Below are positions 11,346 through 53,609 of a stretch of DNA of 64,000 nucleotides, one piece after another. A model generated the notes under the pieces. The model did no database searches, was not told where the DNA came from, and saw nothing but the letters and a program-made list of their open reading frames with translations. How positions within the stretch are numbered: the first letter of the stretch is position 1; each line of letters begins with the position of its first letter. Origin of the DNA: a candidate division WOR-3 bacterium (GTDB lineage Bacteria > Hydrothermota > Tepidihabitantia > Tepidihabitantales > Tepidihabitantaceae); contig CBFGIT010000003.1 of NCBI GenBank assembly GCA_965648905.1, positions 1-64,000 of the forward strand, read 5' to 3'. Both the position numbers and the translations under genes were made by a program.

Positions 11346-11351
11346 CAGGCT

Positions 11352-11518
11352 CCCTGCCCTGCGCGTGATAGCGGCTGAGTCTTGAGCCAACACCCGAGAA
11401 CCGGGTGCCGTCATAGAGGAATGAACGGCCACTCCTGACCGGAGAGGCCCGCAGGTCCTCTGAGGCGCCCACTTCAACCTTCGGTTCATAGACTTGACCC
11501 TACACGGCAGTGGCGGGG
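11352..11518 (+). ncRNA. ssrS: 6S RNA
   Basis: About 167 nt between zapA and rny, the conserved 6S location. Ends pair (ccctgccctgc / gcagtggcgggg); internal agtcttgagcc / ggttcatagact pairing fits the rod structure. Confidence 0.8.
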
Positions 11519-11542
11519 TTTTGTTTGATTGCGGAGGACGTA

Positions 11543-20690: not shown

Positions 20691-22715
20691 ATGACCATCC
20701 TGCTGTTGTTGTGTCTTACCAGTCAGAACATCGAACGCGTGTCAACGGCCGTGCTCTCTGGTGCGGACCGGAAGCTGGTCGTTGACGGCACGCGGCTCTA
20801 CTCTGCCTGCGAGCGCGGGCTTGATATCTTCGACATCACTGAGCCGGAGAGTATCAGGCTGCTCGGGTACTGCAACACGCCGGGCTTCGCCTATGGCTGC
20901 GCGGTGCAGGAATCGATCGCCTTTATCGCCGACAACTTCAACGGTCTGGTGGTGCTGGACGTTGCCGACCCGGCCCGACCGCGCGAACTCAGCCGGTACC
21001 CGATGGCGTCAATCGAGGATGTCGTGGTCAAGGACACCTTTGCGTTCTGCGGCTCGAATGACTTGGCGGTGCTGAGCATCGCCGATTTGGCGCGGCCGCG
21101 GCGACTAGGGCTTCTGTCCGGAGTCGGCATCAAGCGCATGGCGCTCAAAGACACGCTGCTCTTTGTCGCGACCCAGACTGGCCTTAAGGTGCTGAGCGTG
21201 GCCAGCCCCCAGTCGCCGCGCCAGGTCGCGAGTATCGAGGCGAGCTGGCTGCGCGACGTGACCGTGCAGGGCAACTACGTCTACACCTGCGGCGACACCG
21301 AGCTGCTCATCTACGACGCGACAACGCTCGCCCGGGTCGGACGCTATGACGGCGGCTATCTGGCTTTCGGGCTGGCGGTCAAAGACAGCCTTGCGTTTCT
21401 CTGCCGGGGCCAGAACATGGACGTAAGAATCGTGAACGTGGCAAACCCGGCCTTGCCGGTCTACCGGGGCCAGTTCACCTGCCAGAACGGGCCCCAGTCG
21501 GCCGCGGTTTCGGGCCACTATGTGTTTGCCGGGGTCTGGTCGCGCGACCTGCTCGTGGCCGATTTCACCAATCCGGCTGCGCCGGTAGTACGTGGCCGGT
21601 TCAAGCGGCCCGGCGAAATCAACGATGCCTGGCGCAACGGCAACCTGGTCGTCACTGCGGACCGCTGGTATGGAGTGACGGTCGTGGACGTGACCGACAT
21701 CGAGCACCCAGTCGAGCTGGGTGAATTGGTCTTGTCCGGGTATCCCCGGCGCGTGGTCGTGCGCGACTCACTCGCCTTTGTCGCGAACTACGACGGCCTG
21801 GCGATTGTCAGCCTTGCCAACCCGGCCCGACCGGCTCTTCTGGCCCAGACCACAACCAGCTACTACACCTACAAGGTCACAGTCAAAGATACTTTCGCCT
21901 ATGTGGCCGAACGCGAATGGAACCCGTATCACGGCACGCTCCTGGTCTACGGCCTGAGCGACCCCCGGCAGCCGCACCTGCTTGGCAGCTACTCGACCAA
22001 TGGTGGCGGCGTCGAAGCGGTCGCCCACCCGGTCGGCCGGTACTGCTATGTCGTGAGTCAGGGCTGGAGCCTGAACGAGTTCGCCATCATCAACGTTGAA
22101 GACCCACGCGCACCGCGCCGGGTCTCAGGCCTTGCCATCAATGGTTACCCGATTGACGTCGATGCCGCGGGCGAGTACTGCTACGCGCTCGTCACCAGCC
22201 CGAACCAGCGCATCGAGGTCATCTCGGTTGCCGACACGCTTCAACCGAGCCTGCTTGCGACCGTGGGCCTGACCAACAGCCCACGCGCACTCTACGTCCG
22301 TGCGCCCTATCTGTTCGTCTCCTACTACTACCACGGCATCGAGGTGTTCGACATCTCCAACCCGGCTGCGCCGCGCTCAATTGCCACCTGCGACCTGCCC
22401 GGCAGCGCGCAAGGGCTGTATTGCGACGACCAGTGGTACGTCTATGTCGGTGACTCGCACTCCGTTGAGCTGCTCCGTCTTGTTCTGACCGGCATCACGG
22501 CCGAAACCAGCCGAGCCGGAAACAGATGCAACGCAACCCTGTGCCGGAACCAGGTCAAGCTCACACCCGGGAAGGTCGATGTTGTGGACGCGACCGGCCG
22601 AAAAGTCATGACCGGCACGGTCACTCAAGACGGCACGCTCGACATCAGTCGGTTGCCGCCGGGCGTCTACTACGCGACCGGTACTGAGCCGGCGCGGTTC
22701 GTCAAGGTTCGTTAG
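20691..22715 (+). CDS. Secreted LVIVD-repeat beta-propeller protein with C-terminal sorting-like domain
   Basis: Repeated GL.I.D..P..P units; C-terminal DATGRKV...LPPGVYY...RFVKVR; RBS AAGGAGG. Confidence 0.85.
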   Translation: MTILLLLCLTSQNIERVSTAVLSGADRKLVVDGTRLYSACERGLDIFDITEPESIRLLGYCNTPGFAYGCAVQESIAFIADNFNGLVVLDVADPARPRELSRYPMASIEDVVVKDTFAFCGSNDLAVLSIADLARPRRLGLLSGVGIKRMALKDTLLFVATQTGLKVLSVASPQSPRQVASIEASWLRDVTVQGNYVYTCGDTELLIYDATTLARVGRYDGGYLAFGLAVKDSLAFLCRGQNMDVRIVNVANPALPVYRGQFTCQNGPQSAAVSGHYVFAGVWSRDLLVADFTNPAAPVVRGRFKRPGEINDAWRNGNLVVTADRWYGVTVVDVTDIEHPVELGELVLSGYPRRVVVRDSLAFVANYDGLAIVSLANPARPALLAQTTTSYYTYKVTVKDTFAYVAEREWNPYHGTLLVYGLSDPRQPHLLGSYSTNGGGVEAVAHPVGRYCYVVSQGWSLNEFAIINVEDPRAPRRVSGLAINGYPIDVDAAGEYCYALVTSPNQRIEVISVADTLQPSLLATVGLTNSPRALYVRAPYLFVSYYYHGIEVFDISNPAAPRSIATCDLPGSAQGLYCDDQWYVYVGDSHSVELLRLVLTGITAETSRAGNRCNATLCRNQVKLTPGKVDVVDATGRKVMTGTVTQDGTLDISRLPPGVYYATGTEPARFVKVR

Positions 22716-22748: not shown

Positions 22749-23064
22749 CCTGTGGCCAAGCTGCATCCCCATCTGCGTCTCCGGGTGCGGTCTGGTCTGG
22801 TGCTCCCAGTCTAGACTCGCCTGCCCGCCAGCCTGCAGTTCGGTACGCTCTCGAACCCGGCTTCTTAGTCGGTCTGTCACTTGAGTCCTGCTCTGCTTCC
22901 TCACCTGCGCTGACGCCCGACTGCCCAACCGCATTCTGAGCCGGCGCTGACCGCGCTGTCTTGGCTGGCAGAGGGAGCGACTCCCCCACTCGCTCCCCCT
23001 GCCGGTTCCGAAGACAGGTCGGACACCGGGAACTAAAGCTAACATGCTCAAGATACGATAGTTA
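22749..23064. repeat. Degenerate 12-bp-periodic tract plus conserved end motif plus TAAC-N17-GTTA (copy 1)
   Basis: 21 in-phase units 22749-23000 (ctgcatccccat, ctgcgtctccgg, ctgcccgccagc, ctgcagttcggt, ctgcttcctcac, ctgcgctgacgc ...); end motif shared with 53415-53445. Confidence 0.7.
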
Positions 23065-23305
23065 GAATGACCGGTCAGGTTCTGAGAGCCTTATCCGGTC
23101 TGGTCCCAGGGTGCTCTGGCGCGGAGTTCGGCCTGCCCTTCGCCTCTGGTGGTCGTTGGGCGAGTTCCCTAATCCTCTCGCACCTGCCAGACCCTCCTCT
23201 CAAGTCCCGGTATGCCGGCTCGATGCCCTGCACCTTCATCTCAGCCCGCCGCCAAACATGAACCGGTCAGCGAAGCAGCCCCGCTGCCCCGACTTCCCCT
23301 CTGCG

Positions 23306-24697
23306 TCAGAACCCCAGTCGGACTCTCTTCTCGACCTCCGTGTATCCATCCAATTCGCGCCTGGCTGCAGCCTCGAAGTCAGCCATGGCAATCCGCCCTG
23401 TGTCCGAGTCCCCACTCATCCGCGATGCTGCGAGTGAAGCCGCCGAGAGAACCGCGTTGGCAATCTGCCCACCGGTCAGCTTGTAGTTCTCGGCCAACTG
23501 CCTGAGGTCAACGTCCGGCGCGAGCGGTACGGCTTCGGGCAAGTGCTTCCGCCATATCTCGGCGCGGACTTTAGCATCTGGTGGTTCGAAAAAGACCTTG
23601 TGCTTGATGCGGCGTTCGAACGCCGGGTCGAACACGCCGGCGTGGTTCGTGGTCAGAATGACGATTCCCGGAAACTGCTCCATCTCCATCAGCAGGGTAT
23701 TCACCTCGCTGTTGGCGAAGCGGTCGCTTGAGGTGTTCACGTCGGTTCTCCGGGCGAACACCGCATCAGCCTCATCGAAGATGAGCACCTTGCCCTGCTT
23801 TGCCGCCTCGGCAAATGCGCCGTGCGTGTTCTTCTGCGTCTCGCCAACCCACTTGCTCACCAAGTCCGGATAGCTGACAACCAGCGGCTCGCGGCCAAGC
23901 GCCCGGCACAGCATCCGCGCGGTCAGAGTCTTGCCCGTGCCCGACGGCCCGTGAAACAAGATGCAAACCCCGCCTGATACCTGCGGCAGGGAACCGAATC
24001 CCCACTTCTCGCGAATCAGGTCCCGACGGCGGACATAGCCCCACAGCGTGCGGATGGACTCGATGGCCGTGTCACCGAGCACGACGCCGGAGCCGACAAG
24101 GAACTCGGCGATGTCGCCCTCACAGCAGGCTCCTGCCGCGTCCTTGCCCGTCTGTGCCGGCCCGCACTCGACGCCCATGAGCCTCGCCACCACGCTGTCG
24201 TCGAGGCAGAGCCGCCGCGACCCGAATCCCTCCCGGCAGTTCACTGCCGAGAGCAGACGGCTGCCCGGCAGGAAGTAGCCCAGGTACTGCTGCGTATCTT
24301 CCTCCCGGCCCCGGGCAAGAAGAATGACTATCTCGGCCACCTTCAGACCAACGCGCCCGTCGTCATGGGTCAGGTCGGTTGCGGCCACGAGCAGCAGCTC
24401 TACCACCTCCCGCTCCACCGCATCCAGCCCAAACGACTCCGCGAAGTCGTCTATCGGCAGCCTGATGCCGGCGGCCTCAGTCTGGATTTCGCGGACCAGG
24501 TGCTCTTCCTCATACCATTGCAGCGCCGCTTTCAGCACCTCGCGGTCAACCGCGGATGCGTGCTCACGGCGTGGGCGCCACTCGTCGTCCCTGATGCCGC
24601 AGAACCGGCGCGCGAGCCTTACGAACCGGCGCTTCCCCTCCAGCCACTCGCCCGGGGTTGTGTAGGCTTCAGGTGCCGCCTGCTTTGCCTCGTTCAT
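23306..24697 (-). CDS. AAA+ ATPase with uncharacterised N-terminal region
   Basis: Walker A GPSGTGKT, SKWVGET, Walker B IFDEAD, EVNTLLMEME, TTN, DPAFERRI, LTGGQIAN. Confidence 0.9.
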   Translation of the reverse strand: MNEAKQAAPEAYTTPGEWLEGKRRFVRLARRFCGIRDDEWRPRREHASAVDREVLKAALQWYEEEHLVREIQTEAAGIRLPIDDFAESFGLDAVEREVVELLLVAATDLTHDDGRVGLKVAEIVILLARGREEDTQQYLGYFLPGSRLLSAVNCREGFGSRRLCLDDSVVARLMGVECGPAQTGKDAAGACCEGDIAEFLVGSGVVLGDTAIESIRTLWGYVRRRDLIREKWGFGSLPQVSGGVCILFHGPSGTGKTLTARMLCRALGREPLVVSYPDLVSKWVGETQKNTHGAFAEAAKQGKVLIFDEADAVFARRTDVNTSSDRFANSEVNTLLMEMEQFPGIVILTTNHAGVFDPAFERRIKHKVFFEPPDAKVRAEIWRKHLPEAVPLAPDVDLRQLAENYKLTGGQIANAVLSAASLAASRMSGDSDTGRIAMADFEAAARRELDGYTEVEKRVRLGF

Positions 24698-27793: not shown

Positions 27794-27841
27794 TACCACT
27801 GGTCCGCGCCGAAACTAACGCACAACACATTGAGGGTATGT

Positions 27842-28639
27842 ATGACCAATCTTGAGCTTGTGTCCGATGCCGCGAAGGAGGTGCTCGCGGTGCTAGGTGA
27901 AGGGTACGGTGAAGGCGTCTACGAGGAGGCGCTGGCGCACGAACTGCGGCTGCGGCAGATTCCATATGACCGTCAGCGCAACTTCGAGGTGCTATACAAG
28001 GGCTATCGCGCCGGTGAGGGTCGGGTAGACTTCATCATCAACCCGCTCTGGGCCAACCAGGGAGGCAAGGAATTAGTCCTTGAGCTGAAGAGGTTGGCAA
28101 AGATCGGCTCGGACCAGAAGCGCCAGGCCCAGGTCTATATGCTCTCTCTCAACATTGACAACGGCGCGGTGATGAACTTCGCCGCTGAGGTGGAGGTCGT
28201 CGAGGTCACGAAACCAGGCAAGGCCCGCGACCTCACTGTGGCCGCACCCAAACGCGTTGAAGGCGTCGCGCTCCCCGACCTGCTTGAGGCCGGCGCGAAA
28301 GAGGTGTACGACTACCTCGGCCAGGAGTTCATCTACTGCGAGAATGCCAAGAAGATATTTGCCGCAAGCCTCGGCGTCGAGTTGCATCTGTGCGGCTGCG
28401 AGTTCACGGGACTCGACCGCGAGGTGCTCTACAAAGGTCAGCGCGTAGATGCACACAGCTTCGAATTCTGCTTCTCGGACGGCAGCGTTGCCGACACGGC
28501 ATTCTACGACAACGACAAGAAGCTGCAGGAACTCTGTGAAGGCCTTCGTCGCTACAAGACGGCTGCCGGACTCAAGGCCGCCCGTCTTGTTGCCTTCCCG
28601 AAGAAGGAAAAGGACGAAGTGAAGGTCGTCAGCGTCTAG
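27842..28639 (+). CDS. GxxExxY (PD-(D/E)XK-like) protein with tandem duplicated domain
   Basis: LGEGYGEGVYEEALAHEL, YKG, RVDFII, LELK, QAQVYM; second half repeats AKEV...LG...YKG pattern. Confidence 0.85.
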   Translation: MTNLELVSDAAKEVLAVLGEGYGEGVYEEALAHELRLRQIPYDRQRNFEVLYKGYRAGEGRVDFIINPLWANQGGKELVLELKRLAKIGSDQKRQAQVYMLSLNIDNGAVMNFAAEVEVVEVTKPGKARDLTVAAPKRVEGVALPDLLEAGAKEVYDYLGQEFIYCENAKKIFAASLGVELHLCGCEFTGLDREVLYKGQRVDAHSFEFCFSDGSVADTAFYDNDKKLQELCEGLRRYKTAAGLKAARLVAFPKKEKDEVKVVSV

Positions 28640-45338: not shown

Positions 45339-45447
45339 AGTCCCGCCCTTTGACTTACCGTCGGCACACGCTAGGCTTAGGGCGCGATGCGCAACATTCG
45401 CTGGCGGAGCAGGACAGCCACGAGCGCAGCACGAAGAACCGCATATC

Positions 45448-45534
<87 letters not shown>

Positions 45535-45640
45535 TTTTACCACTGGATGGAATGGCTGGCGGAAGCATGTCAGCAGATGGGTCGCGACACGGGTTCTTTT
45601 CGGCCACAAGGCCGAAGATTCGCTGTCCGCTGCGCTCCCA

Positions 45641-51806: not shown

Positions 51807-52835
51807 GGTTTGTTAGTCAAGCCGTGCGTTAACTGCTCTCTTCTGTGACAAGGTTGACGACGGCGTCGGCCCGGCTTCTGCTGTCCCGTCGCTTTCGATA
51901 GGTGTGATGGCATGCTGCGACCGTGGGTCGGCCCCACGCGTCGGCACTCGCTGTAGCAGCGCCCGTCCCGCACCAAGGCACAAAGCAGCCGCACCAGCCG
52001 GCACGAGACTGCGGTTAGCGCAACGTTCTTCGGCTTGCCCCGCGCCACCAGCCTGGCATAGTACGGCTGCAGCGGCCAGCCGCGCCTGGCGTGCTGCACC
52101 GCCACCATGTACAGCGCCCGCCGCAACTGCGACCGGCCCCGCTTCGAGATGCGCCGGCTGCTCCGATACTGCCCCGAGTTGGTCTGATACAAGAATTGAG
52201 CCCAGCCAGCTTCAGTACTGCGGCCGCACAACTGTACTGCCCAAGCCCACCCGTCTCGGCCAGAATGACCGCAGCGGTCATCGCCCCGACTCCCTTCACA
52301 CTCATCAGGTAACGAGCCTCTGGAAGCTGCTCCAGCAGGCGCGCAATCTCTGCCAAGCCAGCGATGCGCCTCTCGAGCACGGCCAAGGTCGCAAGCATCT
52401 CACTCAGGCTGCGTTCCTGGCCGGCACTGACCGCCAGTGGGCCGATTGACTCATCGCCAGCCGCCTTGAGCCGCTTGAGCTTAGCCAGACTGGCCCGGGC
52501 CGCTCCGTCCCGGATCAGGAGCCGGCGCATCTCAGCCGCAGAGTGCGCCCGAACAGCACCAACCGTGCCGAACCGGCCCAGGACCAATCGGGCACTTGGC
52601 CGCTTGAGGTCAGGAAACACCGTCTCGAACTCAGGAAAAAGCACGTCCACGGTCTGGTGCAGGGCATTGAACCAGCCGGTCTGCTCCTTCACCAGCCGCG
52701 CCCGCAAGTTGACCAGTGCGCGCAGCTCGAGGCAGATGTCGGACAGCTCGACAAAGCCCAGGTATTGGCCCCGGACCACGAGGTCGGCAATGATGAGGGC
52801 GTCCTTACTGTCGCTCGCACCGCTTGAAAGCGGGA
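51807..52835 (-). pseudogene. IS110-family transposase remnant (5'-truncated, frameshifted)
   Basis: SDSKDALIIA and SVKGVG..TAA.ILAE.G...KLAGL in one frame; NSGQ...ISKRGRSQLRRALY...YY.RL..RGK in another; shift near 52195. Confidence 0.88.
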
Positions 52836-53150
52836 CAGCTTTCCTGTCAAGTTCGGCTCCGGCATCGGCATAATCATATAGCACTCATAGCAATTCGGGG
52901 GACATGATACGGGATTTTGGGTTGTCAATATGCGGCCGTGGTCATGCGGCACGAGGCGAAGCCGGCTGGACCTTCCTGTGTTTCACAACGTGAAGAAAGC
53001 GGTGCTGATGAGATAGCCAGTCGCAGACAGCATACGGCACACAGGATACAGGGCAGGGCGGCGAGCGAAATCTTGCCGCCCTGCTCTTGTTCGAATGGGG
53101 CCCACGGCTATGCCAGAAATGGCCGGCCTCTGACCAGAGAGTTCCTCCTG

Positions 53151-53480
53151 CGGCTTGCGGCGCGGATCGGAAGGCGGCTTGCCGAGCGGCTCCTGAAGCG
53201 GATTGGTAAGCGACGCCCGAATCGATTCTGGCTGCGCACCCGAGAGCGCAGTGCCGAGCCACAAGGAGAGCCGAAAGGACTGCGCCTCGGGTCGCGGCAG
53301 CCACCGGGGCTCGGGCCGCGCCGGCCTGAGCCGCAGGGAAAGCCGCAGGGAAAGCCGCACCGAGAGCGCTTCAGGGTTCGCTATGGGTAGCGGTTCCCTG
53401 AGCCGTATGGGGAACCGTTCCCCCTGGGGGTTCAGAATACCGGCCCGCTTTCGGCTAACTCCGTGATACTTTGAGGGTTG
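53151..53480. repeat. Degenerate 12-bp-periodic tract plus conserved end motif plus TAAC-N17-GTTG (copy 2)
   Basis: 23 in-phase units 53151-53426 (cggcttgcggcg, cggatcggaagg, cggcttgccgag ... ccgcagggaaag twice ...). Confidence 0.8.
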
Positions 53481-53609
53481 AGTCTCGAAACCGGCCAAAT
53501 CGCCATTATACAATTTTGCTGGGTGCCCTTGAGTCGCTGTCTGTGAGACGCACAAAGACGCCTCTGCGGTTTCTGCCTGGACGCAGGCCAGCCGCTCGCA
53601 AGTCCCGAG

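Follow-up and report, generated by a model that had tools for sequence, protein, structure and literature searches.

The window analysed here is a stretch of 64,000 nucleotides (nt) from a candidate division WOR-3 bacterium (assembly GCA_965648905.1, contig CBFGIT010000003.1, positions 1 to 64,000), and all coordinates without another source are positions in it. We describe an element at 22749..23064, called copy 1, which consists of degenerate 12-nt units followed by a GC-rich end motif, and a second element near 53151..53555, called copy 2, which a preliminary description had taken for the same element (Table 1). Copy 1 lies downstream of a gene for an LVIVD-repeat protein and faces a convergent ATPase gene. 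The tract begins 34 nt past the stop codon of the LVIVD gene, and therefore it is at most carried in the 3′ untranslated region of that gene. Hereafter the source genome (approximately 3.0 Mb) is called G000, a genome of the same genus G001, and a genome of another genus in the same family G005; contigs of G000 have C-numbers.

Table 1. Features at and around the two elements in the window.
Feature	Position	Strand	Evidence or remark
Upstream gene, 674-amino-acid (aa) LVIVD-repeat beta-propeller with type IX secretion C-terminal tail	20691..22715	+	Open reading frame (ORF); Pfam LVIVD E=3.8e-34, weak Por_Secre_tail match; stop TAG 22713-22715
Copy 1 tract, ~19-21 degenerate 12-nt units, C-rich on + strand (C/G 1.3-1.4)	22749..22972	+	Unit starts CTG/CCG at 22761+12k
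Family H end motif GGGAGCGACTCCCCCACTCGCTCCC, 8-nt inverted-repeat arms	22973..22997	+	Found at 7 further loci of the genome
Sigma-70-like pattern CTAACA-18-TAGAAT	23039..23068	+	1 site vs 0.1 expected from shuffles; overlaps TAAC-N17-GTTA (23040-23064)
Convergent neighbour, 463-aa AAA ATPase with winged-helix domain	23306..24697	-	ORF and domain search
Truncated IS110-family transposase fragment, left of copy 2	52015..52884	-	DEDD_Tnp_IS110 profile positions 94-155 only, plus Transposase_20
Remnant 3′ end of type IX secretion cargo gene (...LDLPVFHNVKKAVLMR)	52965..53016	+	Stop 53014-53016; then GC hairpin ~53056-53081
Copy 2, one of 11 family K copies (75-92% identity), ~430-bp repeat	53121..53555	-	Core of family K
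Family K array, 23 units of 12 nt, CSG......RAG on + strand	53151..53426	-	Autocorrelation, unit table
Hairpin GGGGAACCGTTCCCC capping family K array	53409..53423	.	Compensated A-T to G-C pair in one copy (C2)
Family K conserved part ("tail")	53427..53555	-	Holds GCTAAC at 53454-53459

The 12-nt periodicity of copy 1 was evident when its autocorrelation was compared with that of 500 dinucleotide shuffles. Between 22749 and 23000 the match at lag 12 was 0.371 against 0.289 in the shuffles (z +2.9), and the signal was stronger at lag 24 (z +3.8); for the whole of 22749-23064 the values were +3.3 and +4.2, respectively. Lags 3, 6 and 9 did not rise above the shuffles, that is, copy 1 has no 3-nt period. 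In a genome scan of 124,917 windows of 192 nt, the best window of copy 1 scored 0.141. CTG or CCG opens 12 of the 22 units, which places CYG (Y, pyrimidine) at phase 8. The units of copy 1 are too divergent for Tandem Repeats Finder, which reported no array there. The periodic tract, the hairpin arms GGGAGCGA (22973-22980) and TCGCTCCC (22990-22997), the 23/31 match to 53415-53445 and the dyad TAAC (23040-23043)-N17-GTTA (23061-23064) are all present in copy 1 as they had been described. Its placement at the left edge of an accessory region could not be demonstrated: in G005, smc comes immediately after the LVIVD orthologue (57% identity) without an intervening tract, and smc of G000 lies on a different contig. 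No close orthologue of the neighbouring AAA ATPase was found among 12 relatives.

The true relatives of copy 1 were found through its 35-nt end motif, which recurs in G000 and defines, with copy 1 included, eight loci that we call family H. In all eight, the 252 nt on the 5′ side of the motif are 12-periodic (lag-12 score 0.09-0.15) and C-rich (C/G 1.23-1.69), and the 252 nt on the 3′ side are aperiodic (-0.007 to 0.048). The register is shared as well. The most frequent CYG phase is 8 at every locus, 78 of the 159 CYG triplets lie at phase 8 when the loci other than copy 1 are pooled, and the register shows no drift by 3 or 6 nt across the eight, although their tracts, except those on C1 and C9, are too diverged to be linked by BLAST. 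The earlier inference of a recurrent, polarised element with units of constant length and an attached end motif was upheld: in the seven relatives the tract is located on the same side of the motif as in copy 1 and shares its register. As for all families described here, the members are paralogues in one genome, which makes any tally over copies non-independent, and several of the tallies come from alignments read by eye.

The 3′ flanks of three further family H loci (L002, L005 and L006) were unlike each other and contained neither the dyad nor the sigma-70-like pattern of copy 1. Because the flanks past the motif differ in the three loci read, the dyad is private to copy 1; lying outside the module, it would most simply be a chance occurrence or a real sigma-70-like promoter pattern, and the proposal that it is a family feature had to be given up. 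Three of the eight loci (copy 1, C7 and C26) follow a co-directional stop codon, and another three (C5, C4 and C9) are beside divergent gene starts. A fuller form of the module is found at L005 (contig C1, 742-1563), where approximately 0.8 kb contains two 12-nt arrays, an ATG-led ORF and an end motif of the copy 1 type. Copy 1 is without the conserved 5′ part seen in such fuller modules, and is a worn 3′ half, a head-less copy of a larger module. The L005 module precedes, by 60 nt, a gene (1622-2791) encoding a CRISPR_Cas6 domain (E=6e-19), a proximity that we treat as coincidence.

Copy 2 is strongly 12-periodic (53160-53414; z +7.2, +7.5 and +5.3 at lags 12, 24 and 36), and Tandem Repeats Finder reports in it a perfect 2.6-copy repeat at 53329-53359. 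It was assigned to the - strand so that the order reads conserved part, hairpin, C-rich array. A profile of the family K tail finds all 11 copies of that family at E ≤ 2e-34 and gives copy 1 only E=97 and 3.2 bits, so the end motif thought to be common to copies 1 and 2 is a likeness at chance level. In addition, copy 2 has TAAC-N17-GTTG, not GTTA. With the shared motif at chance level and the dyad not family-wide, copies 1 and 2 are placed in different families, H and K, and their union in one family is ruled out. Paralogy of the two 463-aa neighbours was likewise rejected, the one being the AAA ATPase and the other, on the copy 2 side, Mur-ligase/FolC-like (BLASTP E ≥ 1.3).

The family K tail has a -10-like box, TATAAT, on the - strand (53505-53510), which reads yATAAT or yATAGT in 9 of 10 copies (alignment read by eye), and a sigma-70-like TCGAAA-18-TACAAT on the + strand (53485-53514). 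The cargo-gene remnant and hairpin also precede family K copies on C23, C9, C25 and C29. Between the cargo-gene stop and the GC hairpin, the copies on C23, C9 and C29 have a run of AGACAGY heptamers, and the run 5′ of the copy 2 core (~53017-53050) is much shorter.

We then consider the periodic tracts of the genome as a whole. In 192-nt windows, G000 has 150 regions that score above 0.13 at period 12 with little 3-nt periodicity, whereas a simulated 3-Mb first-order Markov sequence, used as the null, reached a maximum of 0.118 and gave 0 windows above 0.13. BLAST links 68 of the 150. At a score above 0.15, period 12 leads with 73 regions, followed by period 7 with 28, 6 with 15, 15 with 6, 18 with 5 and 9 with 1, and there are 0 regions at periods 5, 10, 11, 13, 16, 17, 19 and 20. 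Among the families, B comprises 14 copies of 410-455 bp with common boundaries, and A has three copies in G000 with units like AGGATTGGTCGC. On C10, the family A array follows an ORF that, by eye, resembles the C-terminal part of an IS256-type transposase.

Two relatives carry period-12 tracts at a density similar to that of G000, with 13 (G001) and 29 (G005) regions per 0.4 Mb sampled, compared with 150 in 3.0 Mb. BLAST of family K against 40 relatives gave no match. A model of the family K tail matched G001 twice (E=8.7e-8 and 0.014), with alignment gaps of 1 and 2 nt relative to G000, and gave no match in the sampled G005 sequence; the tract adjoining the first of the G001 matches has AGCG in 12-nt phase (read by eye). 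In G005, arrays with units like CAGCTTGGGAAA are preceded by a gene for a secretion cargo and by a hairpin, and a GC-rich motif closes them. Another G005 locus (L094, 5260-5860) has two arrays of 24-nt period in inverted orientation.

No strand rule was found relative to genes: for the 90 facing gene ends of 80 arrays, the C-rich strand was sense at 37, the G-rich strand at 36, and 17 were neutral. A link to type IX secretion genes was limited to a mild enrichment next to arrays, 20 of the 139 gene ends facing them vs 6.9% of 3702 ORFs (p=0.0013), in a comparison where the copies are non-independent and the gene set of these context tests comes from a crude ORF filter. An iterated in-house profile places a type IX secretion C-terminal domain at the end of approximately 290 ORFs of G000, a very large number of cargo genes for a genome of 3 Mb.

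Comparison of copies showed how the arrays change. Their indels measure 9, 12, 12 and 24 nt over 535 columns, the 9-nt one lying at an array edge where it may be an alignment effect, and those in the conserved non-array parts measure 1, 1, 1, 3, 8 and 17 nt over 316 columns. Indels that would break the register, frequent in the flanks, are absent from the arrays themselves. Perfect neighbouring units occur in arrays according to Tandem Repeats Finder, and in one family K copy a duplicate of one unit has taken the place of another. Within the unit, substitutions are unevenly distributed, with variability peaks at positions 3, 6 and 12. Families K and B have the properties of modular dispersed repeats of the BOX or MIRU (mycobacterial interspersed repetitive unit) kind, namely many intergenic copies, sharp ends and internal variation by whole units. 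Neither terminal inverted repeats nor target-site duplications, the signs of a transposon or miniature inverted-repeat transposable element, were seen at their ends. A partner transposase was considered and rejected, the IS110 fragment at copy 2, the IS110-like insert on C29 and an unclassified insertion sequence (IS) in family B being insertions and not parts of the module.

Known classes were compared as well. At the gathering threshold, Rfam gives only a 6S RNA and a tRNA in the window, and 12 family K and B loci have no Rfam match at E up to 1. A CRISPR (clustered regularly interspaced short palindromic repeats) array consists of near-identical repeats of approximately 21-48 nt with unique spacers of similar length. 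This was ruled out for copy 1, whose 12-nt unit has only 2-4 conserved bases, with no repeats by Tandem Repeats Finder and no cas genes adjoining. An integron attC site has RYYYAAC and GTTRRRY cores around an imperfect palindrome of approximately 55-140 nt. It was ruled out too, as the cores in copy 1 would be AGCTAAC and GTTAGAA, only 17 nt apart, in a dyad that is not family-wide. The statement that copy 1 matches neither CRISPR, attC nor a perfect variable-number tandem repeat therefore stands, and Rfam families can be added to it. CsrB/RsmZ sponge RNAs, of approximately 300-400 nt with approximately 20 repeated short motifs, resemble the arrays, and the family A units CAGGAUUG presumably resemble the CsrB repeat; unlike them, the arrays have strict 12-nt spacing and variable cores. 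PF02599 (CsrA) has no match in G000, which is 99.57% complete, whereas the control matches in three genomes, and a CsrA sponge RNA was ruled out for lack of a csrA gene in G000.

Any explanation has to account for a 12-nt register tied to a motif, drift of the units, strand asymmetry, dispersal in either orientation, and a design kept across genera. On balance, and tentatively, we regard copy 1 as a worn representative of a class of dispersed modules, non-coding and constrained in register, that occurs throughout the lineage and for which "dodecamer-array" may serve as a name. The body of such a module would comprise approximately 20-25 units of 12 nt, C-rich on one strand, whose sequence drifts and whose register is locked to the GC-rich end motif; selection would act on the register and not on the unit sequence. 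The tract could then serve as a ruler that is read from its capped end in 12-nt steps. It would most likely act as an RNA of the C-rich strand, bound cooperatively by a hypothetical protein with a 12-nt footprint, and the end motif may be a nucleation site or a 3′-end stem-loop. The more specific proposal of a nucleic-acid ruler, in which a protein or ribonucleoprotein nucleates at the end motif and polymerises along the strand-asymmetric tract in 12-nt steps and which would make the modules a new class of bacterial element present across an entire family of uncultured bacteria from hot springs, is in our estimate rather unlikely.

Several observations weigh against register-constrained, non-coding modules. 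Consensus folds of the 14 family B copies, on either strand, showed no covariation in excess of the controls, with 7 pairs with double changes vs 5.0 ± 1.5 in shuffles and 93.6% of cells paired vs 92.6%. Slippage bias alone could yield indels of unit size. IS elements are inserted in one family K copy, where a 1.28-kb IS110-like element sits on C29 (6030-7310) exactly at the equivalent of window 53390, and in one family B copy, and therefore single copies are dispensable. The other observations concern translation. The ratio of nonsynonymous to synonymous changes (pN/pS) in one sense/antisense frame pair is 0.57-0.63 in family B and 0.61-0.64 in family K, and 0.8-1.4 in the remaining frames, a weak codon-like pattern in non-independent paralogues that carries no significance test. 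Frame (-,1) of family K holds 1 stop in 728 codons, with long ORFs in two copies; it has ATG in 6 of 10 copies (alignment read by eye) and is open in the G001 homologue too. In family H, the end motif translates as GATPPLAP[R/P] at six of the seven translated loci and as GATPGVAPD at the seventh, with codon variants GCG/GCC, GCT/GCC and AGA/CGA/CGG. Two of the three changes that break the motif stem would be synonymous in that frame, and the 90 codons before the motif are open in it at four of the seven loci.

These latter data fit an alternative in which the arrays are translated now, or were until recently, as a fast-evolving, multi-copy family of orphan tetrapeptide-repeat genes, whose products would be disordered and rich in Arg, Pro, Cys and Leu and most of whose copies, including copy 1, would be dead. 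Twelve nucleotides make four codons, and all array indels are multiples of 3. In accordance with that, a related family has an ATG start and approximately 100 aa at 85-90% identity in four paralogues, and in G001 (L076, 3719-4440) a 175-aa ORF of GLGx repeats ends in an ATGA overlap with a weakly Phd/YefM-like gene. Nevertheless, no open frame with kept start and stop was found in families B, K and H, as each frame is stopped in some copies and the start codon is not constant. Copy 1 has four in-frame stops after the stop of the upstream gene, the + frame of family K is broken by TAG in 7 of 10 copies (read by eye), and family B has 6-15 stops per approximately 1040 codons in all frames. None of the six frames has a codon-usage score above -0.04, compared with +0.31 ± 0.13 for 200 real-gene samples, although this score also penalises stops. 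Searches of 5.8 billion and 1.84 billion proteins found no homologues outside G000, and at the protein level the frame-matched ORF in G001 is dissimilar (BLASTP E ≥ 1.2) even though the DNA tails are alike. Moreover, the favoured frame differs between copies, periods 9, 15 and 18 are rare, and the constancy of the 12-nt register exceeds what a reading frame would demand. We consider translation possible, at a likelihood somewhat below that of non-coding modules.

A neutral origin would dispense with function altogether. The arrays would be a minisatellite-like by-product within a dispersed repeat, periodic only through whole-unit slippage or unequal exchange, in a lineage prone to the growth of tandem repeats. 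Perfect adjacent units, indels of 12 and 24 nt and the period-7 regions of G000 agree with this, as do the absence of an orientation bias to genes, the IS insertions into copies, the failure of BLAST to detect family K in 40 relatives, and the searches in which no structure, homologue or known family was found. Against it, the arrays lack the small indels that occur in the conserved sequence next to them, all eight family H loci keep the register fixed to the motif even though their tracts have diverged beyond BLAST, substitutions are unevenly spread within the unit, and the design persists across genera. We think it doubtful that such turnover accounts for the arrays.

Still less probable is that the arrays act as double-stranded DNA tracks for a small DNA-binding protein, as an operator or in the manner of a centromere, in front of a promoter. 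The repeat arrays to which ParR, omega and TubR bind would be comparable. At three G000 loci (C10, C12 and C21) and one G001 locus, a family A array and hairpin are followed, after approximately 100 nt, by a small gene with a weak Phd/YefM-like match, and downstream of one family B copy a gene encodes a 354-aa protein with an XRE-type helix-turn-helix-like N-terminus (read by eye, no domain search). Sigma-70-like patterns stand just past the arrays of copies 1 and 2, on the strand leading away. However, the Phd-like matches do not reach the curated thresholds (E 0.015-0.12), such a gene is missing beside most copies, and the units are too variable for one sequence-specific protein. In addition, 150 tracts on a 3-Mb chromosome are unfit for a centromere, and the strand asymmetry would go unexplained.

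The least probable of the alternatives, and a very unlikely one, makes copy 1 a site of Rho loading (Rho utilization, rut) on the untranslated 3′ part of the LVIVD transcript, where pyrimidine-C (YC) dimers would lie at intervals suited to the Rho hexamer and a stem-loop would guard the 3′ end: the C-rich strand of copy 1 is the sense strand after the stop codon, two further family H loci also follow a co-directional stop, and rho is encoded in G000, but the C/G ratio is only 1.3 with approximately 27% G, the class-wide strand split is 37 vs 36, three family H loci are beside divergent gene starts, and 20-25 units far exceed the need of six Rho subunits. In PMC6144790, rut sites are described by a C>G skew and the pattern [(YC)N9-13]n, a distance of 12-13 nt being required to bridge adjacent Rho subunits. 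According to that paper and PMC13613805, rut sites share with the arrays a C-rich strand, a spacing of approximately 12 nt and a stem-loop near the 3′ end; the arrays differ in being weakly skewed, high in G, far longer than one hexamer needs, and without an orientation rule to genes.

We could not match the module design to any described element. Within the portions of the literature on 12-nt or 12-bp periodicity and on dodecamer or dodecanucleotide repeats that were covered, no bacterial element of such kind appears, and the subjects are instead dodecamer expansions of human and dog, and nucleosomes.

Other kinds of repeat come near. The short tandemly repeated repetitive (STRR) heptamers of cyanobacteria and the TAACTGA repeats are likewise dispersed, intergenic and lineage-specific, grow by whole units and have an unknown function. 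Unlike them, the present modules have highly degenerate 12-nt units, a register tied to a conserved non-repeat motif, and a multi-copy body of 0.3-0.8 kb. BOX elements of Streptococcus pneumoniae and MIRU of mycobacteria have conserved ends, whole-unit internal variation, intergenic copies and no transposase of their own, and MIRU contain small ORFs coupled to their neighbours, as one array ORF of G001 may be; their units, however, are of 45-77 bp and nearly identical, without degenerate 12-nt phasing or strand asymmetry. Borg tandem repeats share a unit divisible by 3, rapid turnover, and low-complexity encoded sequence forming disordered protein regions. Those repeats are perfect and mostly inside clear ORFs, in contrast to the degenerate units, interrupted frames and sole preference for period 12 of the present arrays.

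Should the register lock be functional, the tracts, approximately 250 nt long and held in 12-nt step with an end motif, would form a class of repeats under selection for the spacing of their units rather than for their sequence, at no fewer than 150 loci and in several genera, and would point to an unrecognised cooperative reader of RNA or DNA. If they are translated, they would represent a large orphan family of tetrapeptide-repeat proteins in which new genes arise and die fast. Either way, the tracts yield spurious ORFs in several frames in these GC-rich genomes, and annotators working on such lineages should mask or flag them.

Some other features of the window may be mentioned. The AAA ATPase gene next to copy 1 and a gene of the PD-(D/E)XK nuclease family (27830-28639, + strand) could represent a defence-like neighbourhood. 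The 6S RNA gene is at 11348-11523 (+ strand; Rfam RF00013, 59.8 bits, full length), and the tRNA is a tRNA-Ser (GGA) at 45447-45535 (+ strand), within the region that the preliminary description called accessory.

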